Positions 5,975 to 39,941 of a DNA stretch of 64,000 nt are shown piece by piece. The translations under genes were made by a program, and so were the position numbers. The notes beneath the pieces are model-generated. The model saw nothing but the letters and a program-made list of their open reading frames with translations. It was not told the DNA's origin and did not search any database. Within the stretch, counting starts at the first letter, position 1; each line of letters begins with the position of its first letter. Source of the DNA: a bacterium (GTDB taxonomy: Bacteria; Krumholzibacteriota; Krumholzibacteriia; LZORAL124-64-63); contig JADJCK010000004.1 of NCBI GenBank assembly GCA_016703265.1, forward strand, positions 205,520-269,519, read 5' to 3'.

Positions 5975-6021
5975 GCCCTTCCCCCAATGCAGCGGCTCGC
6001 GCGGCGAAACGGAGACGACTC

Positions 6022-6770
6022 TCTTGGAGCTCACCTGTCACTTTGCCAGCGGCCAAACCGCGGGTGACCGCCCGACGATGGAGGATCGCTGCGCTTCAGC
6101 GGGCGACGAATACGGTCAGATCTGGGTGGTTGCCGACGGCCTGGGCGGCCATTCCGGAGGCGCCAGGGCTGCGGAGTTCGTGTGCGGTCGGATCATCAGT
6201 CTCTGGCGAGCGGCAGACGCCGGCGGGCGTGGCGATCTGCCGACACTCGTATCTGCAACCGCGTCGGAGCTGGCGGGCGCAAACGCTTCGCTTCACCGAA
6301 CCGAACGCGGATACAGCACCTGCGTGGTGGCGACATGGGAGGCCGCCAGCGGCCTGATCAGAGTATGCGGAGTCGGCGATACGCGCTGTTACCACGTCAC
6401 AGACGGCGCGATTGAGCTCTGCACGCGCGACGATACAGTCGCTTTCCGCTTTGCCCACGAGATCGGCACGGAACCGGGCGTGCGCGCGCACCCGGACAGG
6501 AACTCGCTGCTGCGCGCGATGGGCTCAGAGATGACCGGAGAGCCGCCGAAGATGCAGATTCTGCAACTTGATGATCGCCGCCAGGGTCTCTTGATCTGCA
6601 CTGATGGCATCTGGGAACATGTGCTGGACGGTGAGATCGCGCTGGATCTTCTCAAGTCGCCCGAAGCTTCCGATTGGGTCGCTTTTCTCCTGCGTCGGGC
6701 CGCAAATGCGGGCGCCAACGACCGTGACAACGCCACGGCCGTTGGCATCATTTGGGCTCCGTTGACCTAG
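6022..6770 (+). CDS. PP2C-family Ser/Thr phosphatase
   Basis: ORF 5811..6770. PPM motifs GDRPTMEDR, VVADGLGGHSGG, CTDGIWE. Start set at TTG 6022, after the upstream stop at 5974; ATG at 6079 would cut into the first motif. Confidence 0.75.
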
Positions 6771-6821
6771 AGGGTCTTCGCTGGCGTAGCCCTGATCCGG
6801 GCTCGCCACGAGCTGTCCGCA

Positions 6822-7253
6822 CTAACTGCCCTGTTTGCCGTCACCCTCGAACTCCAGGGTGAAATCGGCGGCACCCGTGGCGATCGTGATCCCCTCCAGC
6901 AGCACGATTTCGCCACCTCGCGCCTCAACGGTTTGCCATTGGGAGTCCTCAGCACCGACAGGCTTGCGAGCCTGGTCGAGCCAGTTGAACCGGTACCGAA
7001 GCGTCAGCAACTGGGACGACGCATTCCTCACCCGCACCGATGCTCGCATGCGGCCCGCCTCGCGACTCCAGTCGCTCTTGACCACCACGATATCCTGGGT
7101 TGCGAGCGTGGCATCAGCAGTCAACTTGTAGGATTCATAGCGGAACTGCTGTCGAGGGGCGCTCGCACAAGCTGTGAGAACGCTCAGCGCGAGCCCTGTC
7201 ACGACCATGATCGCCGAACGGTAAAACCGGTTCGCTGTTTCAGAATTTCGCAT
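6822..7253 (-). CDS. lipoprotein, possibly YcfL/DUF1425-like
   Basis: Signal peptide with lipobox LSVLTAC. 143 aa, beta-rich. Confidence 0.55.
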   Translation of the reverse strand: MRNSETANRFYRSAIMVVTGLALSVLTACASAPRQQFRYESYKLTADATLATQDIVVVKSDWSREAGRMRASVRVRNASSQLLTLRYRFNWLDQARKPVGAEDSQWQTVEARGGEIVLLEGITIATGAADFTLEFEGDGKQGS

Positions 7254-7262
7254 GTCCTCTTC

Positions 7263-8555
7263 CTATCTGTAGTCAGACACTAGCTTGTCAACCAGGCTCT
7301 TCGTCAGATCAGCATAGCGGCCAGGCCGCGCATCCATGCCGGCGCCCAAACTCAGTTTCATCGGATCGCGGGATCGCTGAATCGCTTTCGAGACAGGCTC
7401 GACGTCGGTATAAAGGACCGCCCCATTCGCATCGACCACCTCAAAACTGCCCTGAACGCTCAGGATGAGTTCGCCTTTGGGGCCTTCCCGCTCCGGAAGC
7501 ATCACCAACCGCAGGTTCACCAGCGCATCGGCAACAACATCAGCGCTTTGATCAGCCCAGCCGTCGATCGCAAAATTGCCTCGCTCCAGCGTCGCCCGGT
7601 GTTCCTGGTGCCTGCGGAGGCCGCTCTCGGCCGGCAGCACGGCCCACGACCTGCGTGAAACCAGCGCCCGCTCGAGGACCTGCCCGGCAGTTTCCACGGG
7701 CAGATTCGCCATTCCTTGATTAGTTCGGTCCTCGACCGTCACCTCACCGATCTGGAGCACGCGTCCCGACAGGAGCGGATCGCGCGCTGAGCTGGCCACG
7801 AAAAGGACATCGCCGACCTTCACCGGCTGGTTTGCCGAAGTCACCTTCACGAAATTGCCTTCGGCACCGACCGAGATCACCCGCGCACCCCCGATCCGCT
7901 CCTGGAAGCGGCCGAGTGTACGGCCGTCCAATCCACGGACTTCGTCGCCGGCGCGCCTGATCTCGAACACCACGCCCGGTCCAACGGCGCCATGATCGAG
8001 TGCAAACTCGGCAGTGGTTCCGTCCAGGGCGCGGATCGAGCCGCTTGCCTGAGCGGGCTCGAATGCAGTCGCAAGGCTGCACGCGGCAGCATGGAGCGCG
8101 TCGCGGGTGGTGCTGGCGAAACGTCCCGCACGCCCGGCGGTCCAGTACCGCGGGTTGGGAACATCGCTGAACGTGTAGTCCTTTCTATACGGATAGGACC
8201 TGCAGAACTGCACCAATCCCGTCCGACAATCGACGATCTCCAACTCGGGCTCCAAGGTGAAGAAGCAGTGGGACTCGCCCTCCGGACCCTTCACCTCTTC
8301 GAGCGTGGCCCGCGCGATACGTACGTTCACAAACAGGTCGGGACGTTCCCGGTTTCCCAGCATCACGTCCGTTGCAACATCGCTGGTGGAGGCTGTCTCA
8401 GCTTGCTGGCGAACCAGGTTGCCGGCCGGAGGCAAGACAGCCAGGTCGGTGTTGCGCAGTAGATAGCTATGAATCCACTCCTGGACGTGTTCGGCGGTGA
8501 CCGTGAACTTGGGATTGCCCAGGAGCGCTTTGGGCAGTTCCGGTCGCGTGACCAT
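7263..8555 (-). CDS. hypothetical protein, operon with flanking lipoprotein genes
   Basis: ORF 7263..8891; start set at ATG 8555 (MVTRPELPKALL...) with GGAAG Shine-Dalgarno upstream. The longer ORF N-terminus overlaps the upstream gene and looks non-coding. Repeated VxVGDxLxV beta-motifs. Confidence 0.45.
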   Translation of the reverse strand: MVTRPELPKALLGNPKFTVTAEHVQEWIHSYLLRNTDLAVLPPAGNLVRQQAETASTSDVATDVMLGNRERPDLFVNVRIARATLEEVKGPEGESHCFFTLEPELEIVDCRTGLVQFCRSYPYRKDYTFSDVPNPRYWTAGRAGRFASTTRDALHAAACSLATAFEPAQASGSIRALDGTTAEFALDHGAVGPGVVFEIRRAGDEVRGLDGRTLGRFQERIGGARVISVGAEGNFVKVTSANQPVKVGDVLFVASSARDPLLSGRVLQIGEVTVEDRTNQGMANLPVETAGQVLERALVSRRSWAVLPAESGLRRHQEHRATLERGNFAIDGWADQSADVVADALVNLRLVMLPEREGPKGELILSVQGSFEVVDANGAVLYTDVEPVSKAIQRSRDPMKLSLGAGMDARPGRYADLTKSLVDKLVSDYR

Positions 8556-27806: not shown

Positions 27807-28574
27807 TTAACAATCCTCCCGGATAAATCGCTCGAGGAATGCCTCGTAGGCCCCCTTCATCGGCAGCCCCAGATCGACGCATAGACCGCGTCCCGAAGCT
27901 CGGGCCCCCGTACCATCTGCGTCGGAGACCGTTGACGATTGATTGCCTTCCCAGTAGACACCAATGCCGCGGCGCTGCCAGGCCGGCAGGTCATTGAAAT
28001 TGATGCCGGCCCGCTCATACAACAGGTCGTTCTTGGCGGCAGTCGACATCCCCGCGAGCTGAGTCGCAGACTCGGCCGGGGTCCGGCCCTCCCGTCGCAA
28101 CTGCCAATAGCAGTGTCCGTTCAGTGCATTGCGGTGGGCGTCATCGGCGCGCCAGCGGAAGTAGCTCAGGACGCGCGCCCGGTCGGGCAACTGGGCGATC
28201 CGGGCGTCGAACGCCGCGGGTATCCCCAATCGGTGGGTAAACCACGCGCTGGCTTCGCCGGCCAGGATCGATTCGTACTTACGAAGCTTGCGGCCAAAGG
28301 CGTCTTCGTCGCGGTCCAAAAGCAACGAGATCTCATCGCTCTGCGTGTATGCATAGACGACGCGAAATCCGCACGACATCAGGTGCTTGGTCGTCTCGAC
28401 CATGTGGTCGCGAAATGATTCGTCATACGGTGCGGTGAAACAACACACTTCGCGTGTCAGGCGGGTGAAGTTGCGGCCATCGATCCGCACTACAATGTGC
28501 AGGCCTGGCAGGACACAATGGTCGTGCGCGGTTTCGAAGATCCGCATCGCGGTATCAAGATCCGTGAACCTCAT
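27807..28574 (-). CDS. tRNA(His) guanylyltransferase Thg1-like protein (3'-5' polymerase)
   Basis: ATG at 28574. HIVVRIDGRNFTRL and AYTQSDEISLLL match Thg1 catalytic motifs. Confidence 0.8.
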   Translation of the reverse strand: MRFTDLDTAMRIFETAHDHCVLPGLHIVVRIDGRNFTRLTREVCCFTAPYDESFRDHMVETTKHLMSCGFRVVYAYTQSDEISLLLDRDEDAFGRKLRKYESILAGEASAWFTHRLGIPAAFDARIAQLPDRARVLSYFRWRADDAHRNALNGHCYWQLRREGRTPAESATQLAGMSTAAKNDLLYERAGINFNDLPAWQRRGIGVYWEGNQSSTVSDADGTGARASGRGLCVDLGLPMKGAYEAFLERFIREDC

Positions 28575-29013
28575 CGCGCCACTCCTCGACTGCGAAGCCA
28601 CCCCTCGGCACCTGTGAGACATACCATAGTTGCGTGAAACCCTCGGCAAGGCTTGGCAGCCTCAGCCGCCCAGCCGTGCCCCGGACGGCCGCGTCCGGCA
28701 CGCGTTCAGGGCCGGAACGGAGCCGGTTGCGCTCCAGACAATCGGTGACCACGCTTCGGAAATAGTACCCCACAACCTCGTAACCCGCGGCCAGAGCCGG
28801 CACGATAAAGCGCGCGCGTTCCGCGATGCTCGCATTCGTGTTGTCGACGACAAAAGGCCGACGCTCGAGGATACATGCCTCCAACAGCGTCGCTTCGCGA
28901 CGTCTCGTGCGCAGCGAGTCGAGATTCAAGCGCACGTGGGTGTCGGCGAAGCGCTGCTGGCAGAACGTCGACTTTCCGGCAGCGGGAAGGCCGATGAGAA
29001 TAACTGCATGCAT
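28555..29013 (-). CDS. P-loop kinase (polynucleotide-kinase-like) partnered with the Thg1-like gene
   Basis: Walker A GLPAAGKST at the N-terminus. 152 aa. 20-nt overlap with the downstream Thg1-like start. Confidence 0.6.
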   Translation of the reverse strand: MHAVILIGLPAAGKSTFCQQRFADTHVRLNLDSLRTRRREATLLEACILERRPFVVDNTNASIAERARFIVPALAAGYEVVGYYFRSVVTDCLERNRLRSGPERVPDAAVRGTAGRLRLPSLAEGFTQLWYVSQVPRGGFAVEEWRDEVHGS

Positions 29014-29325
29014 GTGTCTTCATCACCCGGTCGGATCCTGAACGGCACGGTGGCCCCTGAATCCTGGTGGCGAGCGACGGCCTCATCAGAGTCCGCTGCG
29101 CGATGTACGTCCCGTCCACATGTTGTCAAACATGCGGATGGAATTCAACTGCGAACAACCGAACGATCGACGGAAACACCGCGGGACTGCGGAATCCGGT
29201 TTCCCGGGAACCGCGCCGTCCTCTACAATGGGGGCCGATCGGAACCTGACGGCGGTTCGACGTCGACTTCGTCCCGGCGCCGCGGGCTTTGCGAGCCGGG
29301 TCGTCCTCAAACGGGAGTACGTGAA

Positions 29326-30336
29326 GTGAGCCTGAGCTGCACCGTCCTGGGCGCCCCCGGCAAGGACAACGCCCTGCTGGTGACCGTCGACACCGGCCAA
29401 TCTGTCCACAGGCTGCTATTCGACTGCGGGGACGGGTGTTTGACCGGTCTGCCGATAGCCGACATTCTCGCGATTGACCACTTGTTCCTGTCGCATCTGC
29501 ACATGGACCACATTGCCGGCTTCGACACGTTTTTCCGATGCACCTTCGATCGCTCCAGTCGGCCCAATCGGGCGTGGGGCCCGCCTGGAACCGCGCGCAT
29601 TCTCCAACACCGGTTCCAGGGCTTCCTGTGGAACCTGCACGAGCAGATGCAGGGCACCTGGCGTGTCACCGACATCGGCCCCGAATGCCTGCACACGGCA
29701 CGCTTCGAACTGGGTGAGGCGTTCGCCGCGCTTCACGACGACTGCATGGAGGAGCGGTCCGCGGTCGTTCTGGACCATCCTCAGTTCACCGTCGAAGCCA
29801 TTGCCATGGAGCACCGCACCACCACTTTGGCTTACATCGTGCGCGAGAAGCCACGCCGCAACATCGACGTCACGCGTCTTGGCGCGCTCGGCTTGCAGCC
29901 TGGCCCATGGCTGAAGCAACTGAAGGAAGCGATCGATCCGGATTCGACCATTGTTGTCGAAGGAGTTGCGCATACCGCCGGCACACTTGCCGAGTCACTT
30001 GTCAGCGAAACTCCAGGCGATTCCGTTGCCTATCTGACGGACTTTCTTCTCGACGACCAGGCGATGGATGCTCTCGTGCCGCGGCTGCGCGAATGCAACA
30101 CCGTCGTCTGTGAGGCGCAGTACAGGCACGCGGATCTGGACCTTGCGCATCGCCATTTCCATATGACCACCGTCTTGTCCGCAACGTTGGCACAACGAGC
30201 AGCCGTCCGGGAGTTGGTACTCTTTCATCTGTCGGAGCGATATTCGCGAAGCGAATGGCTGGATATGTTGAACGAGGCGCGGGCCGTGTTTCCCAGGACG
30301 CGGTTCGCGGATTCCTGGCGCCTGGATGCCGACTAG
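29326..30336 (+). CDS. metallo-beta-lactamase-fold hydrolase, RNase Z/RNase BN-like
   Basis: GTG at 29326 with GGGAG Shine-Dalgarno. HxHxDH motif LFLSHLHMDHIAGF. Divergent from the kinase/Thg1-like pair. Confidence 0.7.
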   Translation: MSLSCTVLGAPGKDNALLVTVDTGQSVHRLLFDCGDGCLTGLPIADILAIDHLFLSHLHMDHIAGFDTFFRCTFDRSSRPNRAWGPPGTARILQHRFQGFLWNLHEQMQGTWRVTDIGPECLHTARFELGEAFAALHDDCMEERSAVVLDHPQFTVEAIAMEHRTTTLAYIVREKPRRNIDVTRLGALGLQPGPWLKQLKEAIDPDSTIVVEGVAHTAGTLAESLVSETPGDSVAYLTDFLLDDQAMDALVPRLRECNTVVCEAQYRHADLDLAHRHFHMTTVLSATLAQRAAVRELVLFHLSERYSRSEWLDMLNEARAVFPRTRFADSWRLDAD

Positions 30337-30390
30337 GGTGGCTACTGTCAGGCAGCGCGCCCGCGTGGCCGGAAGTTCAGCCCCTGGCGG

Positions 30391-30978
30391 CTAATCGGGC
30401 GCTTTCCCGGCAGCTTTGCCACTCGACTCCCTGAGCGCGCGCCACTCGTCCGCCAGCACGTCGAGATACACCATGTCGCACCATTCGCCTCGCATGAACG
30501 CTGCCTGGCGCAGCACACTTCCGCGGCGATAACCCTGCTTCTCGAGAGCGCGAAGCGAGGCGTGGTTGTCGGCCAGCACCTCAGCCCACAAACTATGTAG
30601 TCCGAGCTCGCCGAATGCGTAATCCATCATCAGGTTCTTGGCTGCCGTGCCGAATCCCCGGCTGCGGTACTCCGGCGGGCCGATCACGATGCCCGTCATC
30701 GCACGGCGACGAATCCAGTCAATGGCATGCAGGCCTGCCGTCCCGATCAGGATTTGATTGTCGCCATCCGGAATAGTGATGCCCAGAACCACATCTCGAC
30801 GATCGGCGCCCGCCGTCGAATGCGACTGCAGCCATGCCGTCTCGTCGCCAGCCGTGATGGGGAATCTGACGGAGAGAAAGCGCCTCAGCTCAGGACTGTT
30901 CAGCCAAACAACCAATTGTTCGGCGTCGCTGGGCTCGAGTGTGCGCAGATTCACGGCTTCGCCGCTTAGAAACACCAC
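30391..30978 (-). CDS. GNAT family N-acetyltransferase (RimJ/RimL-like)
   Basis: 195-aa ORF with acetyl-CoA-binding region (HASLRALEKQGYRR). Confidence 0.65.
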   Translation of the reverse strand: MVFLSGEAVNLRTLEPSDAEQLVVWLNSPELRRFLSVRFPITAGDETAWLQSHSTAGADRRDVVLGITIPDGDNQILIGTAGLHAIDWIRRRAMTGIVIGPPEYRSRGFGTAAKNLMMDYAFGELGLHSLWAEVLADNHASLRALEKQGYRRGSVLRQAAFMRGEWCDMVYLDVLADEWRALRESSGKAAGKAPD

Positions 30979-31125
30979 CGCGTGTCCCCCTCCGTGTTCT
31001 CGGCCATGTTGGCCCCGAAGGCGCGCTCAGCTCTTGCGCCGTCGCGCGGTCTCCGGCGGTACGGATTGTACGGCTTGAACTCCGTCGCGGTCAACCTCTC
31101 CGGAACAGACGCGACCGTGCGAACC

Positions 31126-31617
31126 CTATCCCAGCAAGCGTTCGTAGACTTCAAGATCTCGCGCCGAGAAGCAGCAGAACTGCACCTCTTCGATGCCCTG
31201 TGGTGCCGAGCGGACCGTCGCGATGGCCGTTGCAGCCGCCTCTTCTATCGGATAGCCGAAGATGCCCGTGCTGATGCTGGGGAACGCAAGCGTCCTGATC
31301 CCATTCGCGACGGCGACCTCCATCGAGCGGCGGTAGCATGACGCCAACAGATCCGGCTCACCATGGGTACCGCCGCGCCACACCGGTCCGACGGTATGAA
31401 TGATGAAGCTCGCGGGAATCCTGTAGCCACGTGTGATCTTCGCATCTCCCGTTCGGCAGCCGCCCAGCAGCCTGCACTCGTGCACCAGTTCTGGACCTGC
31501 CGCACGGTGAATGGCACCATCGACGCCACCACCACCCAGCAGCGACGAGTTTGCAGCGTTGACGATCGCCTCTACAGGTACCTTCGTGATGTCGGCCTTA
31601 ACGGCCCGGATGATCAT
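31126..31617 (-). CDS. macrodomain protein (MacroD/YmdB-like ADP-ribose-binding hydrolase)
   Basis: [25 protein letters not shown] and [12 protein letters not shown] motifs. ATG at 31617 ([12 protein letters not shown]). Confidence 0.8.
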
Positions 31618-31683
31618 GGCGTCTCCAGTTCGGGCTCTCAAGCGTGCCGCGCGACACAGATCCGCAGTCTCCAGCCAAGCCCA

Positions 31684-32325
31684 TCAATCGACGGCCAACT
31701 GCAATCGGCCGGCGATCGCCGGATCACGGGGGCGGTACACACGTTCGCGTGGGGCCTGAAGCCCGGCCACCCCGGCGACCGCAAGTCGGGCTCGTTGGTC
31801 GGCCACGAATCCCGACACATCCATGACCTCGATCAATTCGTTGCACCCGTATGACTTCAGAACGCGTCCGCGCAGGCCCAACTGGACAGCTCTTCGTGGC
31901 AAGCGGGCGCCGAATGGGTGATGATCTGGGTCCCATCGCAGCCTTACCTCTGACGTCTTCAGCGCGCGGGACCATTCGCCTTCCGTGGCGAACTCGCCAC
32001 AATCCCACAACGAGGGCACCGCCTGGGCCAACAACGAGTCAAAAAACACCTGTCGTATGCGCAATGCCAGGACGGTTTCCTGCCCGACTTTGGTGCCCCA
32101 TCCGGAGCGATACATCATCCACAGGAAATTCGGCTTCACCCAGCTCATTCGTGAATAGCTGAAGCCGGGTCCGAATGTCCCGTGTTCGGCGGCATATTGA
32201 CCAGTCGGCGATCGGAATGCCTGATAGACGATGATTGTGTCGTCGTCGTACTGGGCGAGTATGTGGCGCCCTTCCGCGGGCCACAGCTTCACCTGCTCCA
32301 GATAGGATTCGGTTTCCAGATTCAT
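31684..32325 (-). CDS. DUF4291-like protein
   Basis: ATG at 32325 (MNLETESYLEQVKLWP). Conserved block TIIVYQAF...YSRMSWVKPNFLWMMYRSGWGTKVGQE...LRWDPD. Confidence 0.55.
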   Translation of the reverse strand: MNLETESYLEQVKLWPAEGRHILAQYDDDTIIVYQAFRSPTGQYAAEHGTFGPGFSYSRMSWVKPNFLWMMYRSGWGTKVGQETVLALRIRQVFFDSLLAQAVPSLWDCGEFATEGEWSRALKTSEVRLRWDPDHHPFGARLPRRAVQLGLRGRVLKSYGCNELIEVMDVSGFVADQRARLAVAGVAGLQAPRERVYRPRDPAIAGRLQLAVD

Positions 32326-32359
32326 TCGTCTCACCTTGGGCCCTCGCGCAGACTCTCGA

Positions 32360-32902
32360 CTACGGCAGCTTGTTGGGCGATTCAGCGGGCGCCGGTGGCG
32401 CCTCCAGAGGCATAAGACCCAGATCCGCCTCGACAACTTCCGCATACTCCACGAGCGTTGCGATCACTTCACAATAGGCATCGAGAGCGCCGGTGGCCAT
32501 GCTCTGCGCTCGCCGCAGCAGGTCGTCTTCGGCTGCCGCCAAGCGTGCGTCGGCGTCCCGCAGACTTTTCAGCATGACTCCGGTAACGCCATGTTCTGCC
32601 GTGAGTACCGCGACGATGGTCGCCAACTTGCCGAACTGATCGACGATTGCTGAGGCGTGGAGATTCACGCGCTCCGATGTGACATCCGTCCACGTGGCGC
32701 CCCTGGCCGACACCAGATCGGTCATGGCTTCCACGCGTTCGCTGATTTCCCGGCTCGGCGCCAATATGCGCTTGAGGCTCTGTGCGTCCGCTGCCAGGGC
32801 GGCCATGGCCGCGGAGGTGTCACTCCGCAGTGCCGATTGCAGCTGGCAGGACTCGAGCGCGGTCCCGAACAGGACACATGTTGTCAGCCGGGCTGACATG
32901 GC
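32360..32902 (-). CDS. hypothetical helical protein
   Basis: ORF 32360..33070; start uncertain (MSARL at 32902 avoids overlap with the upstream gene). Confidence 0.4.
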   Translation of the reverse strand, partial: AMSARLTTCVLFGTALESCQLQSALRSDTSAAMAALAADAQSLKRILAPSREISERVEAMTDLVSARGATWTDVTSERVNLHASAIVDQFGKLATIVAVLTAEHGVTGVMLKSLRDADARLAAAEDDLLRRAQSMATGALDAYCEVIATLVEYAEVVEADLGLMPLEAPPAPAESPNKLP

Positions 32903-32943
32903 GTCGACAGGCGCTGCTTCACCGCGGCGGATCGCCTCCTGGA

Positions 32944-34440
32944 TCAGATCGCGCGCGGCGACCAGGTCGGCTCGTGCCGCCTGCTCGGAGACTGGATCCC
33001 GTTCCGCAGGTACCTGAATTTCAAGGCCGACCAGGGAACAACCCGTCGGCATGTACCTCGCCAGGCACACCGGCGTGCGGCCGAACGCTCCTTGCGGTTC
33101 AGGTACTCGCTCAAGGGCTCGATCGTTTCCGGGCTGGGCGCGGCGCCCAGCCCGGACGCGTAGAACACCTGACTGGCCGCGACATGCACCGCATTCGGCC
33201 TGCTCAGCAAGGTACTGGCGGCGGCATTGCCGGCGATGACGCCCTCACCGCCAAGTTGTTCCGCTGCGGCGATGCGATCGGCTTCACACTGATGTGTCGC
33301 GCGAGGCTCCGTCCGTGTCGCCAGAACTTCGCTCCAGCGCTCGGCGAAGGTCGCCTGGTCAAGACGCGACGCCTCGACGGCAATCAACTCGCCAACGGAG
33401 TCTGGAAGGACTCCGCGGCGCAGGAAGTGCGACAATTCAGCCTCGACAACGGATCTTCCCGAAGCCAATTCGTGCAGCCGCCGCGCGGTTGCCGCGAACT
33501 CGTTGCTGCCGGCCACCAGGGTCTCGTAGCGATCCGCATCGAACTCCATCTGGCGCAACTGGAACGAACTGATGAGCACGCCGACTTCCATAAGCAGGCG
33601 CAGGATCGCACGCGAGATCCACACCATGCCACGAGCAGCCCAGCAAACCACAACCAACGTCACATGTTGCGAGCCGACCCCGTTGTCGAGCCACTCGTCC
33701 AGGCGATCCCGCTGGTACACGACCCGCGAGAACCACCAGTTGACAGAGCGAATCACGTACGAGACACGCATCGCGCCGCCTTGTGCGAAATGGCCCAACT
33801 CATGCGCCATGACGCCGGTGAGTTGCCGCAGGGACATGCCGGCCAGGAGCGGCGTTCCGATCGTCAGCACAAGGTCGTTACCAATGAAGCTGAACATGCC
33901 GCGGCGGAATGCGGCCGAGGCATTGACGTCGCAGTTCACTCGTATCTCGCGCGGTCTCGGCGCTTGTAGCGTGTCGGCGAGACGGTTCACGTGGGCATGC
34001 AGTTCCGGTTCTGCAATGGGGTCGAGCACCACATGATCGGCCCGGTAAGCGGCACGGCTGAAGAGCGGCTTGATCAGAAAGAGCCAGGTAATGCTCCCGA
34101 CGATGAGCGGGCCAAGGTAAAATGTGAGTTGGAGACGGCCCATGCCGTGGTCGAAGATCGCCAATCCACGAACGGCGTGCGTGGCGATCAGCCACGCCAG
34201 TGCAGCCAGCAGGCCCACGTACAGCATGGGCAGTAGAATCATGCCCGCCGCCACGATTGTCGTGCCCAGGTTGTAGCGCGCCGGGCGGCGAGGCCGATTG
34301 ATGGCGTTGGTCGTCCAGACCGTCGCTACCGCGATGGGTTCCTCTGCAACGGGGCTTTGCACAGTGAATTCCTTGGTTGAAGAACCAGACGCACGCGCGA
34401 GTGGCAGGACACACCGCCCGCGTACGATCTCGAAGATCAT
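32944..34440 (-). CDS. M48/M56-type membrane zinc metalloprotease
   Basis: TM helices, then HELGH with a downstream EFDADRYE third-ligand motif. ORF extends to 34581; ATG at 34440 (MLTKTD) is preferred. Confidence 0.65.
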   Translation of the reverse strand: MIFEIVRGRCVLPLARASGSSTKEFTVQSPVAEEPIAVATVWTTNAINRPRRPARYNLGTTIVAAGMILLPMLYVGLLAALAWLIATHAVRGLAIFDHGMGRLQLTFYLGPLIVGSITWLFLIKPLFSRAAYRADHVVLDPIAEPELHAHVNRLADTLQAPRPREIRVNCDVNASAAFRRGMFSFIGNDLVLTIGTPLLAGMSLRQLTGVMAHELGHFAQGGAMRVSYVIRSVNWWFSRVVYQRDRLDEWLDNGVGSQHVTLVVVCWAARGMVWISRAILRLLMEVGVLISSFQLRQMEFDADRYETLVAGSNEFAATARRLHELASGRSVVEAELSHFLRRGVLPDSVGELIAVEASRLDQATFAERWSEVLATRTEPRATHQCEADRIAAAEQLGGEGVIAGNAAASTLLSRPNAVHVAASQVFYASGLGAAPSPETIEPLSEYLNRKERSAARRCAWRGTCRRVVPWSALKFRYLRNGIQSPSRRHEPTWSPRAI

Positions 34441-34603
34441 CATGTCGGTCTTCGTCAGCATCTGTGACAAAAAGCGCGAACCGCAGCCAGGACCGGCAAC
34501 GTTGACCTCCCTTTCCGCACAACAACGGACCCGCAGTCGCGATAACGACGCTATCGCCGAAGGAGACCGCGCAGAATTCATGAGGCTGTGCGCGGTTTGT
34601 CCT

Positions 34604-34638
34604 TGACAACGGTCGGAGAGACTTGTAACATCCCCGCC
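34604..34638 (+). promoter_or_regulatory. candidate sigma70 promoter TTGACA-N17-TAACAT
   Basis: TTGACA at 34604-34609, 17-nt spacer, then TAACAT. Oriented toward the leader ORF and the tRNA-Arg genes. Confidence 0.4.
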
Positions 34639-34673
34639 GTTACAAAAACGCGCAACGCTTCAGGGAAGGAGGA

Positions 34674-34763
34674 ATGGACATGTTCGGGCAAGCCAGACTG
34701 CGAAGTTCGCATATGTCGATTCCCTCACTGGGCTTTGCCGCGGTGTCGGCGGGAGTTGGATGA
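34674..34763 (+). CDS. 29-codon leader-like small ORF with AAGGAGG Shine-Dalgarno
   Basis: agggaaggaggaATGgac; encodes MDMFGQARLRSSHMSIPSLGFAAVSAGVG; contains the rare Arg codons AGA and CGA. Confidence 0.35.
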   Translation: MDMFGQARLRSSHMSIPSLGFAAVSAGVG

Positions 34764-34801
34764 TCTCATCCGGCCACGCCAACAGCATTCCGCCCGCGAA
34801 G

Positions 34802-34830
34802 CCCTTGGGAAACCGAGGGTTTTTTGTTTT
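34802..34830 (+). terminator. intrinsic terminator-like hairpin CCCTTG-GGAAAC-CGAGGG followed by TTTTTTGTTTT
   Basis: 6-bp stem (one G.U), 6-nt loop, 11-nt T-rich tract ending 1 nt before the tRNA. Confidence 0.5.
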
Positions 34831-34831
34831 C

Positions 34832-34908
34832 GGGCCCGTAGCTCAGTTGGATAGAGCGCCTGGTTCCGAACCAGGAGGCCGGGGGTTCGAGCCCCTCTGG
34901 GCCCACCA
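34832..34908 (+). tRNA. tRNA-Arg (anticodon CCG), CCA encoded
   Basis: Cloverleaf read by eye: acceptor GGGCCCG/TGGGCCC, D arm GCTC-AGTTGGATA-GAGC, anticodon arm CCTGG-TTCCGAA-CCAGG, T arm GGGGG-TTCGAGC-CCCTC, discriminator A plus CCA. Confidence 0.85.
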
Positions 34909-34912
34909 GATC

Positions 34913-34992
34913 GCGAGCCTGTATGCTCAACTGGATAGAGCGCCTGATTACGAATCAGGAGGTTGGGGGTTCGAGCCCCTCCAGGCTCGCCA
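34913..34992 (+). tRNA. tRNA-Arg (anticodon ACG), CCA encoded; one-nucleotide irregularity at the acceptor/D-arm junction
   Basis: Anticodon arm CCTGA-TTACGAA-TCAGG, D arm GCTC-AACTGGATA-GAGC, T arm GGGGG-TTCGAGC-CCCTC, acceptor 3' strand CAGGCTC-G-CCA. The 5' side (GCGAGCCTGTAT) has one extra nucleotide relative to a canonical 7+2 layout. Confidence 0.7.
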
Positions 34993-35034
34993 AGAGCATC
35001 GCCGCAAGTTCAAGCAACCAAGGAAGCAAGGCTG

Positions 35035-36201
35035 TTGAAGCAATCAAACGAATCCGACCGCGATGAGGCAGCAAGGGCCCCCGTCGCGACCTGGCTGAGC
35101 GAGCGGATGCCTGAGCCCGTATCGCGGGCCATCGCAAGACTGTCGACCTGCGACGATGTGGTGAAGATCGCCGTGATGCCGGATGTGCACCTGGCTGCGG
35201 ACGTCTGCAACGGAGTCGTCGTGGCGACGCGGGAGCGACTCTATCCGCAAGCTGTCGGTGGGGATATCGGCTGCGGCATGACCGCACTGCGGCTTGACGG
35301 CAGCGCAGGTCTCTTGCGCTCCCGGCATCAGGCGCAGCAGATACTGAAGGGGCTTGAGACGGCCGTGCCGATCGAACGTCATTCGCGGGCCACCGTCGCC
35401 GATGAACTGCCCGGCGATCTGCGCGACCAGCCCCTGAGCGATCCTGCAATGGCGCTGCAGGCCGCGCGCACGGGCCTGTTCCAGCTGGGTACGCTGGGGC
35501 GTGGCAACCATTTCCTGGAGATCCAGGCCGACGACCAGGACCAGCTCTGGCTGATGGTCCACAGTGGCTCGCGGGGTCTTGGTCAGGCGATTGCGATGCG
35601 GCATCTGGCGCGCGCGGAGGATTCCGGTCGCGGCCTGCGCTCGCTGGACGCGGGCAGCGACGACGGCAAGGCCTACCTGAACGACATGGACTGGGCGGTC
35701 CGCTACGCCAGCCGGAGCCGACTGGCCATGGCTCGCGCGGCGGCTCACCTGCTCGAAGCGGTACTCGGCGCTCCGGCGGTCGAGAACTCGCTTGTCGACA
35801 CCCCGCACAACCTGGTTCGCCAGGAGAACGTGGCCGGGCAGCAGCTCTGGATCCACCGCAAGGGCGCCATGGGCGCCCGGGAGGGAGAGCCCGGGGTGAT
35901 TCCCGGGGCCATGGGCGCCATCAGCTACCATGTCACCGGACGCGGCAGCGAGGAAGCGCTGAACTCGTGCTCGCACGGGGCGGGTCGCGCCATGAGCCGA
36001 ACGGAGGCGCGGCGGCGGATCACGCGACGCGATTTCGAGCGCCAGGTGGGAGACCTGTGGTACGACGAACGCCGCGCCAACGATCTCCGTGAGGAATCTC
36101 CGGGCGCCTACAAGGACCTCCGCCTCGTAATGAAGGCACAGGCCGATCTCGTGCGTATCGACCGCCGCTTGCGGGGCGTGCTGACCTACAAGGGGATCTG
36201 A
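35035..36201 (+). CDS. rtcB: RNA ligase RtcB (3'-phosphate/5'-hydroxyl RNA ligase)
   Basis: APVATW...IAVMPDVHLAADV, GGDIGCGM, GRGNHFLEIQ, HRKGA motifs. TTG at 35035 gives the N-terminal spacing expected before the MPDVH block; ATG at 35107 is the alternative start. Confidence 0.85.
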   Translation: MKQSNESDRDEAARAPVATWLSERMPEPVSRAIARLSTCDDVVKIAVMPDVHLAADVCNGVVVATRERLYPQAVGGDIGCGMTALRLDGSAGLLRSRHQAQQILKGLETAVPIERHSRATVADELPGDLRDQPLSDPAMALQAARTGLFQLGTLGRGNHFLEIQADDQDQLWLMVHSGSRGLGQAIAMRHLARAEDSGRGLRSLDAGSDDGKAYLNDMDWAVRYASRSRLAMARAAAHLLEAVLGAPAVENSLVDTPHNLVRQENVAGQQLWIHRKGAMGAREGEPGVIPGAMGAISYHVTGRGSEEALNSCSHGAGRAMSRTEARRRITRRDFERQVGDLWYDERRANDLREESPGAYKDLRLVMKAQADLVRIDRRLRGVLTYKGI

Positions 36202-36412
36202 CGCCCCAAACGCTGTCGGTCACACTGCGAAAGCCGCGCCACTGCGGAAATCGCGGATTGACCAGCGAAAGGGCTCCGTGGGATCATGGCATCGTTTGAT
36301 GCGGTTCCGGGCTGGGGGCGGGATGCGATCTTGTGAGCTAGCTTCGACTTGATCTGACAGATCGTGCTCCAAAGAACAAACGATCTTTCAGGTCCAGTTG
36401 CCGCTGTCTCAA

Positions 36413-37183
36413 CTAGCGCCCCTCTTGGCTTCGCACCCAGGCCTCGTCCTCCTCGGTGGCGTGCTGCCATAGAGAGGTCAGCCCCCACCACTTGATCCCG
36501 CCCCCGCGCGAGTCCGAACCGGCACACACACCAGGAATGCCGTCAGCGCCGCAGTACGTCACTTCGACATTCCACGCCTTCGTTGCATCTGCGATACGTA
36601 GGGCCTCGTCCAGATCCTGGATGTGCTCCGAGACCGTGATGTACGGCTTGCTTCTTCCTTCCTGTCGGCTCACCGTGAAGCTTCCTCCGATCCGTTCCAC
36701 CATCAGCTTGTCCAGGTTCTTGCCGCGTTGCTCGCCTGCGCCTTCATCCGTTCCCTTGCAATCCCCGCAGACGCGATCAAGAGAGGTCCGCGTGACCCGA
36801 CGACGGCAGTACCCGCACCGCTGGGGGTCGCTGCTCCAGTATCCCGTTTGGGGAAATTCCTCTCGTGACGCGCGCCACTCGACCATGCTCGGATGGTCCT
36901 CGGGGAGCCACGAGCCTTCACCATCTGTTGGTGACTCAGGGCAATTTCCGTGCAGGTAGCCCAAGATCCAGTATTCGGACTCACGTGAGCAGGACATGAT
37001 CTCTGCCTTCGAGATCCGGGTGAACCCCTCCTTCGAAGGGCAGTACACCTCAATGCGTCCCGGATGTGTGTAGGGATTCCCCACCAGGTAGTGCCGAGCC
37101 GTCCCGCAAGTATCATTGATTTCCACCCACAGGCAGTCGTCAATCTCATACTCCGCATCCGATGCCGATAAGCGAACCTTCAC
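36413..37183 (-). CDS. zinc-ribbon protein of unknown function, paralog A, last gene of the rtcB2-prfH operon
   Basis: 256 aa. HYLVGNPYTHPGRIEVYCP...YWILGYLHG...CGYCRRR...CGDC. Clear paralog of 54880..55632 (HYLVGNAFTFPGRILVWCP...YWIAGFLHG...CEMCRKR...CATC). Confidence 0.6.
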   Translation of the reverse strand: MKVRLSASDAEYEIDDCLWVEINDTCGTARHYLVGNPYTHPGRIEVYCPSKEGFTRISKAEIMSCSRESEYWILGYLHGNCPESPTDGEGSWLPEDHPSMVEWRASREEFPQTGYWSSDPQRCGYCRRRVTRTSLDRVCGDCKGTDEGAGEQRGKNLDKLMVERIGGSFTVSRQEGRSKPYITVSEHIQDLDEALRIADATKAWNVEVTYCGADGIPGVCAGSDSRGGGIKWWGLTSLWQHATEEDEAWVRSQEGR

Positions 37184-38139: not shown

Positions 38140-38787
38140 CTATTGCCCTGCACGCCGCCCGCCCCGCGCGCGGAAATCTGCGCCCTCGTACACCCGAATC
38201 GGATTCCCTCTCTCCAACTGATCGTGCCCCTCCCAGCGCTGCTGCCTGGCAGCATCCAACTGGCGCTCACCGCTGCGGTGCACCAGAATCGCCAACCGTT
38301 CCAGCGCGCGCTTGCGATTGGCGATCTGGGATCGTTCATCGCGAGCGATGGCCACCAGCCCTGTCGGGACATGGACAGCGCGGACGGCCGACTCCGTGGT
38401 GTTCACGTGCTGTCCGCCGGGACCCGAGGCGCGCATCACTTCAATCCGTACATCCCGCTCGGAGAACACCGGTGTCGCGGGTACGGGGACGCGCCGCACG
38501 CCGACAAACCAGTTCTTTCGCTTGTTTTCGGGCCGGAAGCGCGAGGTGCCGATCCACTGGACGGTGCCCTCAAGGGTCGCAGCAAAGGCGGCGCAGTCAT
38601 CGCCGGACAGGTGAATCAGAGCCGAGAGGAGCGTGCCGGGTTCCGGCCCGGGCTCGGTTTCGATCAGTTCGGCGTTGAGTTCGGCCCCACGCGCCTCCAT
38701 GAGGAGCACTTCGACCAGCTGTGCGGCCACCCAGGCGCACTCCACCGGCCCGCGGCCGGATGTGATCTGAATCAGCTCTGTGCTCAT
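38140..38787 (-). CDS. prfH: peptide chain release factor H (PrfH), GGQ-containing RF paralog
   Basis: SGPGGQHVNTTESAVRAVH motif. 215 aa, lacking the RF N-terminal domain. Start overlaps the rtcB2 stop. Confidence 0.85.
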   Translation of the reverse strand: MSTELIQITSGRGPVECAWVAAQLVEVLLMEARGAELNAELIETEPGPEPGTLLSALIHLSGDDCAAFAATLEGTVQWIGTSRFRPENKRKNWFVGVRRVPVPATPVFSERDVRIEVMRASGPGGQHVNTTESAVRAVHVPTGLVAIARDERSQIANRKRALERLAILVHRSGERQLDAARQQRWEGHDQLERGNPIRVYEGADFRARGGRRAGQ

Positions 38788-39941
38788 CTTTCCCTGACCT
38801 TGTACGTCAACACGGGGGTGAACGAGGCGATGACCCGGATCAGGCCGAACGTCTGCATGTTCTCGATGATCGTCTCGATGTCCTTATAGGCCTGGGGGGC
38901 TTCTTCGTACAGCAGGCTCTTGTCTTCGCAGATGACGTAGCTCCCCACGCCGGTCCGGCGCAGCGAGTCGGCGCTGTAGCGCTCCCGCAAGCGGCCCTCG
39001 CATTCCGAGCGGCTCCATTTGCGGCCGGCTCCGTGGGCCACGGACCAGAGATTCGGCTCCTGTTCGCCGCTCGGCATCACCAGATAGCTGGCTGCTCCGC
39101 GTGATCCTGGGATGACAACGGCGCCGGCATCAGAGGGGGCTGCGCCTTTGCGGTGCAGACAACAGGGCCCATCGTCGGTCGCCACCTGAGTGACGGAATT
39201 GTGCACCAGATCCACCACGCGGCGGTATCCGCTCCCCAACTGTTCGAGAAAGCGCAGCGCGATCAGTTCCCGGTTGGCGCCCGCCCAGCCAATGGCATTC
39301 TGGTGACGTTCCAGGTAGATCGCGGCTTCCTCGCCGCCGGCGGCCAGACTGCCATCGCGGAACCGGGTTGTATGGGCCCGCAGCAACGCTTCGCCGAGTC
39401 CGCGGGAGCCTGAATGCACCAACAGCGCAAGTGCGTCCTTCTTCAAGCCCAGCGACTGGAATGTCTCGGGGTCCGGGATATCCTTCGCGCGCAGGAGTTC
39501 CGCAAAGTGGTTGCCGCCACCGATCGTGCCCACAGATCTGGCATGGCCCTCTTCCCGGGCCCCACGCTCTTCGAGCCAAGCAACCGCATCGCCATCCCAC
39601 GGCTCTTCCAGATGGCAGAGCTTCTTGGACCATCTTTCCGGCTTGGCTCTGGCCACCTCAAGATCGGTCGCGAACAGCCCCATACCGCAACCCACGTCCG
39701 AACCGACCAGATGGGGATAGAACTCCAGCCTCGAAAGCATGGCGGCGCCAACCGGCGAGCCCTTTCCCGGGTGCAGGTCCGGGAAGCCCGCAACCCTGAC
39801 CATGCCGGACAAAGCGGCCACCCGCTCCAGCTGGCGAAGCGCTTCGCCCTCGATTCGGGCGTCAGAGGTGGCGAAGAGTGAGATCGGCTTGTCGTTCACG
39901 GGATGCGTTCCTTCTGTATTTCGATCGGCTTGGCTCGGCAC
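38784..39941 (-). CDS. rtcB: RtcB2, PrfH-associated RtcB-family RNA ligase
   Basis: FPDLHPGKGSPVG, GSDVGCGM, GGGNHFAELL, HRKGA motifs. Immediately upstream of prfH. Confidence 0.85.
   Translation of the reverse strand: MPSQADRNTEGTHPVNDKPISLFATSDARIEGEALRQLERVAALSGMVRVAGFPDLHPGKGSPVGAAMLSRLEFYPHLVGSDVGCGMGLFATDLEVARAKPERWSKKLCHLEEPWDGDAVAWLEERGAREEGHARSVGTIGGGNHFAELLRAKDIPDPETFQSLGLKKDALALLVHSGSRGLGEALLRAHTTRFRDGSLAAGGEEAAIYLERHQNAIGWAGANRELIALRFLEQLGSGYRRVVDLVHNSVTQVATDDGPCCLHRKGAAPSDAGAVVIPGSRGAASYLVMPSGEQEPNLWSVAHGAGRKWSRSECEGRLRERYSADSLRRTGVGSYVICEDKSLLYEEAPQAYKDIETIIENMQTFGLIRVIASFTPVLTYKVRER

Follow-up and report, generated by a model that had tools for sequence, protein, structure and literature searches.

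How a cell would express two transfer RNA (tRNA) genes and an RNA ligase gene that lie directly behind a terminator hairpin is the question raised by a short stretch of an uncultured Krumholzibacteriota genome (GenBank assembly GCA_016703265.1, contig JADJCK010000004.1), which we analyzed within a window of 64,000 nucleotides (nt; contig positions 205,520 to 269,519; positions given below are those of the window unless another locus is named). The element in question is a leader that carries a promoter-like sequence, a small open reading frame (ORF) behind a Shine-Dalgarno (SD) sequence, and the hairpin, and it is followed by two tRNA-Arg genes and rtcB. An earlier note on this DNA had likened the layout to an attenuator leader peptide that couples tRNA-Arg transcription to arginine decoding, and our comparison of related loci bears this out in kind, the tRNA genes having no other predicted promoter. 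On balance, the conservation of the leader and its predicted folds lead us to favor the view that positions 34603 to 34830 (230 bases) act as a ribosome-mediated leader-peptide attenuator that gates a tRNA-rtcB operon.

Architecture of the leader and the operon

The leader and the genes behind it comprise the following features.

34603-34631, + strand: sigma-70-type promoter from a consensus scan, with -35 hexamer TTGACA (34603-34608), a 17-nt spacer and -10 hexamer TAACAT (34626-34631)
34666-34672, + strand: SD sequence AAGGAGG, 7 nt before ATG 34680 and 1 nt before ATG 34674
34680-34763, + strand: leader ORF, 27 codons plus TGA, MFGQARLRSSHMSIPSLGFAAVSAGVG; start, length and stop are common to five leader sequences
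34701-34718, + strand: candidate control codons CGA AGT TCG CAT ATG TCG, that is, Arg8 Ser9 Ser10 His11 x Ser13
34798-34830, + strand: intrinsic terminator, TTTTTTGTTTT, with a stem-loop at 34798-34823 (core CCCTTGG/CCGAGGG) and a T run at 34820-34830
34832-34908, + strand: tRNA-Arg (anticodon CCG), CCA encoded, found by ARAGORN and as an Rfam tRNA (67 bits); identical in loci L013 and L024
34915-34992, + strand: tRNA-Arg (anticodon ACG), CCA encoded, found by ARAGORN and Rfam, with an extra U at 34924
35035-36201, + strand: rtcB (RNA 3'-phosphate/5'-OH ligase), 388 amino acids (aa), Pfam RtcB PF01139, E = 2.4e-81

The promoter hexamers match the consensus at 10 of 12 positions in the promoter scan, and transcription would start at about 34638. 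The TTGACA-N17-TAACAT arrangement had been recognized before, with a span (34604 to 34638) that began one base off and ran too long. In 3 kb the promoter scan returned 2 promoter-like sites versus 0.6 expected, and 2 terminator-like hairpins were observed versus 2.0 expected, making a single hairpin alone unremarkable. The consensus scan found no further promoter-like site between 34631 and rtcB, so that the tRNA genes and rtcB must be transcribed through the hairpin and its T run, with the leader promoter as the sole predicted one ahead of them. The T run ends 1 nt (C 34831) before tRNA-Arg(CCG). All of the features described earlier are present, with small errors of coordinate. The M48 peptidase gene 5' of the leader lies on the opposite strand and is divergent; its transcription runs away from the hairpin, which led us to reject a bidirectional terminator for M48 and means that the case raised as a possible refutation, a hairpin terminating only an upstream unit, does not apply.

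The stop TGA 34761-34763 is preceded in frame by two ATGs, 34674 and 34680. Because the SD sequence stands 1 nt from the first and 7 nt from the second, and because the first is ACG in a related locus (L001), the conserved ORF is the one of 27 codons from 34680; the earlier reading had 29 codons from ATG 34674 with a gap of 5 nt to the SD sequence, where the actual gap is 1 nt. The product of the downstream gene matches PF01139 with 274.6 bits versus a gathering score of 27, and its homologs are labeled RtcB by their sources, which identifies it at the sequence level as an RtcB RNA ligase. The rtcB start is probably TTG 35035, behind AAGGAAG (35020-35026) and 42 nt 3' of the second tRNA; the same start is called in L024, and homologs have 388 aa. 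An exact look-up (364-aa RtcB version, P0003, P0121) returned no record.

Conservation of the leader

We gathered leader copies from loci that encode relatives of RtcB and of the M48 peptidase, which gave five distinct leader sequences in three lineages of uncultured bacteria: the window with L013 and L024, then L026, then L001. The leader lies upstream of rtcB in all of them. Flanks in L013 and L024 are 94 to 98% identical to the window (98% in L024), and the L013 leader is also present in L014 and L032; the L026 leader, shared with L027, is 85% identical to that of the window, and in L001 the leader is about 75% and RtcB 80% identical. The L001 arrangement matches that of the window, with a divergent kptA in place of M48 and zero tRNA genes between the leader and rtcB, which it directly precedes. 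Since L001 has the leader and rtcB without a tRNA, the constant partner of the leader is rtcB and not tRNA-Arg, to which the earlier note had tied it. Set side by side, the window and L001 compare as follows.

Promoter hexamers: kept
Promoter spacer: 5/17 identical
5' untranslated region (UTR): 19/34 identical
SD sequence to AUG: 16/17 identical
Leader ORF: same start, length and stop, with no insertion or deletion (indel)
30 nt after the stop codon: 17/30 identical, with an indel
CGCGA and terminator: kept

The conserved parts are the hexamers, the stretch from SD to AUG, codons 8 to 15, codons 18 to 27, and CGCGA with the terminator, and the diverged parts are the promoter spacer, the 5' UTR, codons 2 to 7, and the stretch 3' of the stop codon. 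This unevenness, with hexamers and SD fixed while spacer and UTR have drifted, supports a function for the predicted unit. Across the leaders the -35 hexamer varies as TTGACA/T/G and the -10 hexamer as TAACAT/TAGCAT/TAGTAT, the hexamers themselves being kept; the SD-to-AUG stretch is identical at 16 to 17 of 17 positions across all lineages, with AAGGAGG invariant. The ORF has no indel in the five sequences, no other frame keeps start and stop open in all five, and 12 of the 21 differences between the window and L001 fall at third codon positions, a pattern from which we infer that the ORF is translated.

No second copy of the leader was found by blastn in the window or in the other examined loci beyond those named, and plasmid, phage and viral collections held nothing similar to it. 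A metagenome scan by peptide alignment gave 106 pattern matches with 0 confirmed leader copies, and one with the degenerate pattern GFAAVSAGxG-stop gave 4 matches, all of them chance occurrences within unrelated sequence.

Alternative pairings of the leader RNA

The segments of the leader RNA that enter into its predicted pairings are these.

34649-34663, + strand: region 1 (anti-antiterminator), a segment of the 5' UTR whose pairing with region 2 encloses hairpin A
34668-34725, + strand: hairpin A, the SD and start-codon region paired with codons 8 to 15
34728-34742, + strand: region 2, core GGGCTTTGC at 34730-34738, codons 17 to 20; its partner is region 1 or region 3
34739-34795, + strand: hairpin B, a long stem-loop with the stop codon in the apical stem (GGATGATCTCATCC), stacking under the 2:3 helix
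34794-34804, + strand: region 3, CGCGAAGCCC, spanning the terminator's 5' flank and 5' arm, and forming the antiterminator with region 2

The 194-nt leader folds better than 200 of 200 shuffled sequences (z = -3.4). According to the folding analysis it can adopt two mutually exclusive states, one with regions 1 and 2 paired (1:2) and the terminator formed (3:4), and one with region 2 paired to region 3 (2:3) as the antiterminator. Region 2 (GGGCUUUGC) is complementary to GCGAAGCCC (34796-34804) in the terminator 5' flank and arm, and it is the best upstream partner of the terminator 5' arm in all five sequences, its duplex being equaled by 7/500 shuffles for the window, 12/500 for L026 and 38/500 for L001. 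Immediately 5' of the terminator stem, CGCGA is kept at 5/6 positions, versus 17/30 identity to L001 for the 30 nt that precede it.

In the five-sequence alignment, the 2:3 helix has 13 pairs (97% paired) and one compensatory change. The terminator has 8 pairs (100% paired), of which one has changed on both strands in a compensatory way (U-A to C-G) and three have one-sided changes. Hairpin A has 19 pairs (95.8% of cells paired) and one compensatory change (codon 2 C>U with Ser10 G>A), and hairpin B has 16 pairs (95% paired), one of which occurs as four pair types (CG, GC, GU, UG). The 1:2 helix is part of the minimum free energy (MFE) structure of both the nascent and the full-length RNA in all five leaders, and in stepwise folding it forms in every lineage once region 2 is made; in L001, region 1 is a different 5' UTR sequence (GCGGGCC.CG) that still pairs with region 2. 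The untranslated full-length RNA folds with 1:2 paired, hairpins A and B formed, and the terminator intact. With no constraint given, the RNAalifold consensus is the antiterminator state, and 4 of the 5 sequences folded singly have the terminator state as their MFE; the two states are thus near-isoenergetic.

To model a ribosome on the leader, we folded only the RNA 3' of it, starting 13 nt beyond the first base of the codon in the A site. A ribosome whose A site has reached no further than codon 13 gives the antiterminator, with loss of the terminator, in the window and L001 (codons 9 to 11 in L013), and an A site at codon 16 or beyond gives the full terminator. An Rfam search (cmscan, 33500-36500, E up to 10) matched the two tRNAs and otherwise returned chance matches only, with no family, the T-box included, matching the leader (34600-34830).

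tRNA arrays and candidate control codons

The lineages carry 0, 2, 4 or 6 tRNA genes between the leader and rtcB, limited to the species Arg-CCG, Arg-ACG, Ser-GCU, Ser-CGA, Ser-UGA and His-GUG.

L013 and L014: Arg-CCG, Arg-ACG, Ser-GCU, Ser-CGA, Ser-UGA, His-GUG
L024: Arg-CCG, Arg-ACG, Ser-GCU, His-GUG
Window: Arg-CCG, Arg-ACG
L026: Arg-ACG, Ser-CGA, then the contig end
L017 and L018: the 3' end of a tRNA-Ser, then a tRNA-His that breaks off in the T loop and runs into the rtcB ribosome-binding site
L001: none

Relative to L024 the Ser and His genes have been cleanly lost from the window, and relative to L013 four tRNAs and a Metallophos gene 3' of rtcB have been lost; by sequence comparison, its array is a deletion derivative of the fullest (L013-type) array. 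Because tRNA-His and these tRNA-Ser species are required by every cell, the window organism must carry them elsewhere, and the array copies would be redundant, or "spare."

Codons 8 to 13 of the leader ORF read R-S-S-H-x-S in all lineages, with synonymous swaps in L001 (CGA to CGG, UCG to UCA). CGA and CGG are read by Arg-ACG and Arg-CCG, AGU by Ser-GCU, UCG and UCA by Ser-CGA and Ser-UGA, and CAU by His-GUG, and these tRNA species are exactly those of the downstream array. The earlier note had considered arginine decoding alone; the conserved run is Arg-Ser-Ser-His-x-Ser, and the fullest array adds three tRNA-Ser and one tRNA-His. Its statement that AGA and CGA are rare holds (4% and 13% of Arg codons among the 13,590 codons of the window), and AGA is not conserved, being AGG in L026 and GGT (Gly) in L001, where CGA is likewise replaced by CGG. 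AGU (9%) and CAU (36%) are, like CGA, non-preferred within their own amino acid, and all three are decoded via wobble pairing by established rules. A run of at least four R, S or H residues that contains all three is found in 0.9% of random 26-mers with the amino-acid composition of the window; the match between codons and cargo, which was noticed after the fact, is suggestive. Stalls at codons 8 to 13, whose R-S-S-H-x-S residues match the Arg, Ser and His cargo, free region 2 in the folding model, and these codons are the last positions at which a stalled ribosome does so.

Several features of the arrays stand apart from the codons. The extra U 34924 in tRNA-Arg(ACG), between positions 9 and 10, gives a tRNA of 78 nt with the anticodon at position 36; L024 shares it, L013 and L026 are without it, and it may mean that the array copies are under relaxed constraint. 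In L013 (3004-3079) and L015 (85-160), a U-C mismatch interrupts the anticodon stem of the array tRNA-His, and the truncated tRNA-His fused to the rtcB ribosome-binding site occurs in two independent samples, L017 (83-145) and L018. A GC-rich hairpin GCCCC...GGGGC without a T run stands between tRNA-His and rtcB in L013 (3085-3110) and L024 (2927-2950) and is gone in the window deletion. Y RNAs are neighbors of rtcB in Salmonella; an Rfam YrlA (Y RNA-like) match at 34853-34976, across the two tRNAs, was rejected as an artifact of tRNA likeness (E = 0.62, 20 bits versus a gathering score of 69).

A proposed switch

The leader combines its own predicted promoter, a short ORF with a ribosome-binding site, an intrinsic terminator, and an exclusive antiterminator together with an upstream 1:2 mask, which are the parts expected of an attenuator. 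In the mechanism that we propose, a ribosome that is absent, or that has moved past about codon 16 toward the stop, would let region 1 re-pair with region 2, whereupon the terminator would form and transcription would end at about 34830. A ribosome lingering at codons 8 to 13, over the slow codons CGA, AGU, UCG and CAU, would sit between regions 1 and 2 and hold hairpin A open; the freed region 2 could then capture the 5' arm of the terminator, and RNA polymerase would read through into the tRNA genes and rtcB. The leader ribosome would most plausibly slow at the Arg, Ser and His codons, and the signal could be too small a supply of tRNA-Arg, tRNA-Ser or tRNA-His in working form (charged and intact), as when a tRNA-cleaving toxin has acted, although in general any stress on translation would serve if it slowed the leader ribosome. 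The output would be replacement tRNAs of the same species and a ligase that reseals broken RNAs. A narrower, tRNA-specific version, in which the Arg, Ser, Ser and His codons would each probe their own tRNA species and the operon would be a self-contained tRNA-damage response, seems to us possible rather than probable.

A number of points weigh against an attenuator. All of the evidence is computational, it comes from only three independent lineages with three of the five sequences near-identical, and the mechanism would presuppose transcription-translation coupling in an uncultured lineage. Covariation is thin, at one to three compensatory pairs per structure; L013 and L024 have an A>C mismatch in the 2:3 helix, with a duplex energy no better than that of shuffles, and the L024 terminator is weakened by three G-U pairs. 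The shuffle controls gave 8 to 10/500, a range that related unstructured sequences reach in 5 to 25% of cases. A stall anywhere from codon 6 to codon 13 yields antitermination, so the model does not single out R-S-S-H, and the candidate control codons occur as single codons, where hisL and pheL have repeats of theirs. L001 retains R-S-S-H yet carries no tRNA cargo, and codon content does not follow array content from lineage to lineage. The conservation of codons 8 to 15 can also be explained by the pairing of hairpin A with the ribosome-binding site, where the compensatory change uses the Ser10 wobble base. Finally, the C-terminal half of the peptide (GFAAV.AG.G) is conserved, mostly with third-position changes, which a classical leader peptide does not need and which the attenuator model does not explain; the peptide may have a role of its own. 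It has no match to a Pfam or NCBIfam family, leader-peptide models included. A type I toxin peptide was rejected for its too low hydrophobicity, judged by eye only.

Alternative explanations

The closest alternative is that the leader is a generic translation-stress attenuator of the kind found before vmlR, msrD, ermC and bmrCD, in which any slowing of the ribosome would induce rtcB and the Arg-Ser-Ser-His run is incidental or forced by pairing with the ribosome-binding site; it is nested within the explanation that we favor and differs from it only in the signal. Such a sensor would fit the breadth of stall positions (codons 6 to 13) that give the antiterminator, the retention of the leader without any tRNA in L001, the pairing of codons 8 to 15 with the SD and AUG with its one compensatory change, and the induction of rtcB by translation inhibitors in other bacteria (PMC8421152). 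We nevertheless consider it unlikely: R-S-S-H-x-S covers the three amino-acid classes present in the array without adding any other (p about 0.01), the swaps CGA to CGG and UCG to UCA keep the amino acid and switch between isoacceptors that are both in the array, and the invariant positions use minor, wobble-read codons.

Less likely again is a stand-alone small gene, with a 27-aa peptide or an RNA of about 190 nt as its product, the tRNA genes and rtcB being transcribed by unregulated leak and the alternative pairings being incidental. Promoter, SD, ORF and terminator do form a complete unit, the C-terminal conservation of the peptide just described would be accounted for, and GC-rich RNA always offers alternative helices; however, the peptide lacks a family match and has Ser23 replaced by Phe in L026, and a stand-alone gene would leave rtcB, plus six tRNA genes in relatives, promoterless in three lineages. 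The same explanation also sits poorly with the conservation of CGCGA beyond what the terminator needs, with the finding that in every lineage the terminator arm pairs best with region 2, and with the 5' UTR-region 2 pairing that L001 keeps with a different sequence.

An RNA-only switch, that is, a riboswitch or a protein- or tRNA-binding leader in which translation of the ORF is absent or irrelevant and whose ligand could be, for example, uncharged tRNA or fragments of tRNA that end in a 2',3'-cyclic phosphate, is improbable, since the strong leader structure with its two near-isoenergetic states and the tRNA-fragment sensing of enterobacterial rtcBA control (PMC7790460, PMC10159003) stand against the lack of any Rfam match, a perfect and invariant AAGGAGG 7 nt before the ATG, an ORF whose frame, length and stop are kept without indel between flanks that have indels and about 50% identity, and the bias of substitutions to third codon positions.

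Genomic surroundings

RNA-repair genes are abundant around the unit in the window and around that of L001. In the window, a run of genes from 27807 to 32445, with links to RNA repair and end healing, adjoins the M48 gene, and the same set is found in L032; a second rtcB lies beyond the first.

27807-28649, - strand: Thg1-like
28555-29013, - strand: AAA_33 kinase
28630-30336, + strand: metallo-beta-lactamase fold
30391-30978, - strand: GNAT
31126-31641, - strand: Macro domain
31684-32445, - strand: DUF4291
38784-39941, - strand: second rtcB, directly upstream of an RF-1-domain gene (prfH) at 38140-38787

The second rtcB and the RF-1-domain gene are the known rtcB2-prfH ribosome-repair pair, and no leader-like unit was found upstream of them. 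The M48 gene appears split into overlapping frames at 32944-34581 and 32360-33070 (- strand), where relatives have 667 to 700 aa in one frame; the split is a frameshift or assembly error, and the true start is probably near 34465 (MLTKTD...) and not at 34581. M48 relatives at 57% identity (L028-L031) have different neighbors. In L001, positions 4071 to 8277 hold the divergent KptA/Tpt1 RNA 2'-phosphotransferase, a downstream AAA_33 kinase, and a convergent PolyA_pol/HD enzyme of the CCA-adding type.

The gene 3' of rtcB is unassigned in the window and is a Metallophos or kinase gene in relatives. The Metallophos (calcineurin-like phosphoesterase) gene follows rtcB in L013 (4361-5119), L015 and L017 and is cleanly absent from the window (36201-36420), and in L024 and L025 an unrelated 111-aa ORF stands in its place. 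Distant RtcB homologs (about 41 to 63% identity; L002-L012 and L019) have no tRNAs and no blastn match to the leader, and in most of them, L019 included, an upstream protein gene abuts or overlaps rtcB. Among L003-L009, L012 and L019 (RtcB about 48 to 63% identity), a protein gene in the roughly 450 nt upstream ends at or overlaps the rtcB start in most (in L019 a called upstream ORF); in L003-L005, L007, L009 and L012 this gene ends in a conserved ...RKRAPEL.FVP motif. The upstream gene would be a different partner of this short RtcB subfamily.

Comparison with known systems

Leader-peptide attenuation is textbook for amino-acid operons. Like the classical attenuators (trpL, hisL, pheL, leuL, thrL and ilvL, and pheM before pheST), the leader described here has its own promoter, a short ORF with a ribosome-binding site, candidate control codons about 15 to 30 nt before the 5' strand of the antiterminator, four segments that pair by a 1:2 / 2:3 / 3:4 scheme, and an intrinsic terminator immediately ahead of the genes that it would regulate. 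The use of poorly decoded codons is a further likeness, shared with leuL. Unlike the classical cases, the regulated genes would be tRNA genes and an RNA ligase instead of biosynthetic enzymes or a synthetase, the ORF offers one codon each for three amino acids instead of a run of one, and region 1 lies in the 5' UTR, enclosing a hairpin that masks the ribosome-binding site; sequence similarity to the classical leaders is absent.

The leaders of ermC, bmrB-bmrCD, vmlR and msrD offer a second parallel, in that the RNA refolds when a ribosome stalls on a short ORF, which disables a terminator downstream, and the output helps cells whose translation is impaired (PMC9226507, PMC10314930). Those leaders answer drug-bound ribosomes and control resistance factors, whereas the present leader is not known to be tied to any drug and its output would be tRNAs and RtcB.

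To our knowledge, the mechanism of rtcB induction is known only for the RtcR/sigma-54 system, and we understand most bacteria with rtcB to lack RtcR. In Escherichia coli and Salmonella, the CARF-domain activator RtcR binds tRNA fragments and drives rtcBA from a sigma-54 promoter (PMC7790460, PMC10159003). The proposed switch resembles that system in keeping rtcB off until the translation apparatus is damaged, and differs from it in its sigma-70-like promoter, its divergent M48 gene (kptA in L001), the lack of rtcA after rtcB, and the translating ribosome as the proposed sensor. No divergent rtcR, sigma-54 promoter or adjoining rtcA was found at the locus, the genome beyond it not having been searched for rtcR.

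T-box riboswitches bind tRNA directly and independently of translation, share a conserved T-box sequence, and control synthetase or amino-acid genes. They are likewise terminator/antiterminator leaders that report the state of a specific tRNA; unlike them, this leader has no T-box match.

The redundant tRNA operons of cyanobacteria, the trn L-arrays, are silent by default and induced by translational stress, and they are co-regulated with rtcB and often adjacent to it; their control runs through promoter repeats, with a direct-repeat motif, TGTWNWWNWNNWGTANYNWA, lying across the -10 box and the start of transcription (PMC8421152). The motif is absent from the whole window, with one mismatch allowed. 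What the two have in common is a redundant tRNA operon that is tied to rtcB in function, and often in position, and whose proposed task is to bring translation back after stress; unlike the trn L-arrays, the arrays here comprise 0 to 6 tRNAs of three amino-acid classes and would be co-transcribed with rtcB behind a leader ORF and a terminator.

Our literature search found no report of leader-peptide attenuation controlling rtcB, RNA-repair genes, tRNA genes or tRNA operons. If the proposal is true, this would be the first leader-peptide attenuator found for tRNA genes and an RNA-repair enzyme, and it would provide an RtcR-independent answer to how bacteria sense RNA damage, with the ribosome itself as the damage sensor. 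Sensor codons, replacement tRNAs and a repair ligase would be wired together within about 2 kb, providing a testable model of tRNA-integrity sensing, and the switch could explain why redundant, fast-turning-over tRNA genes adjoin rtcB. It would also serve as a compact part with which to report how available chosen tRNAs are.

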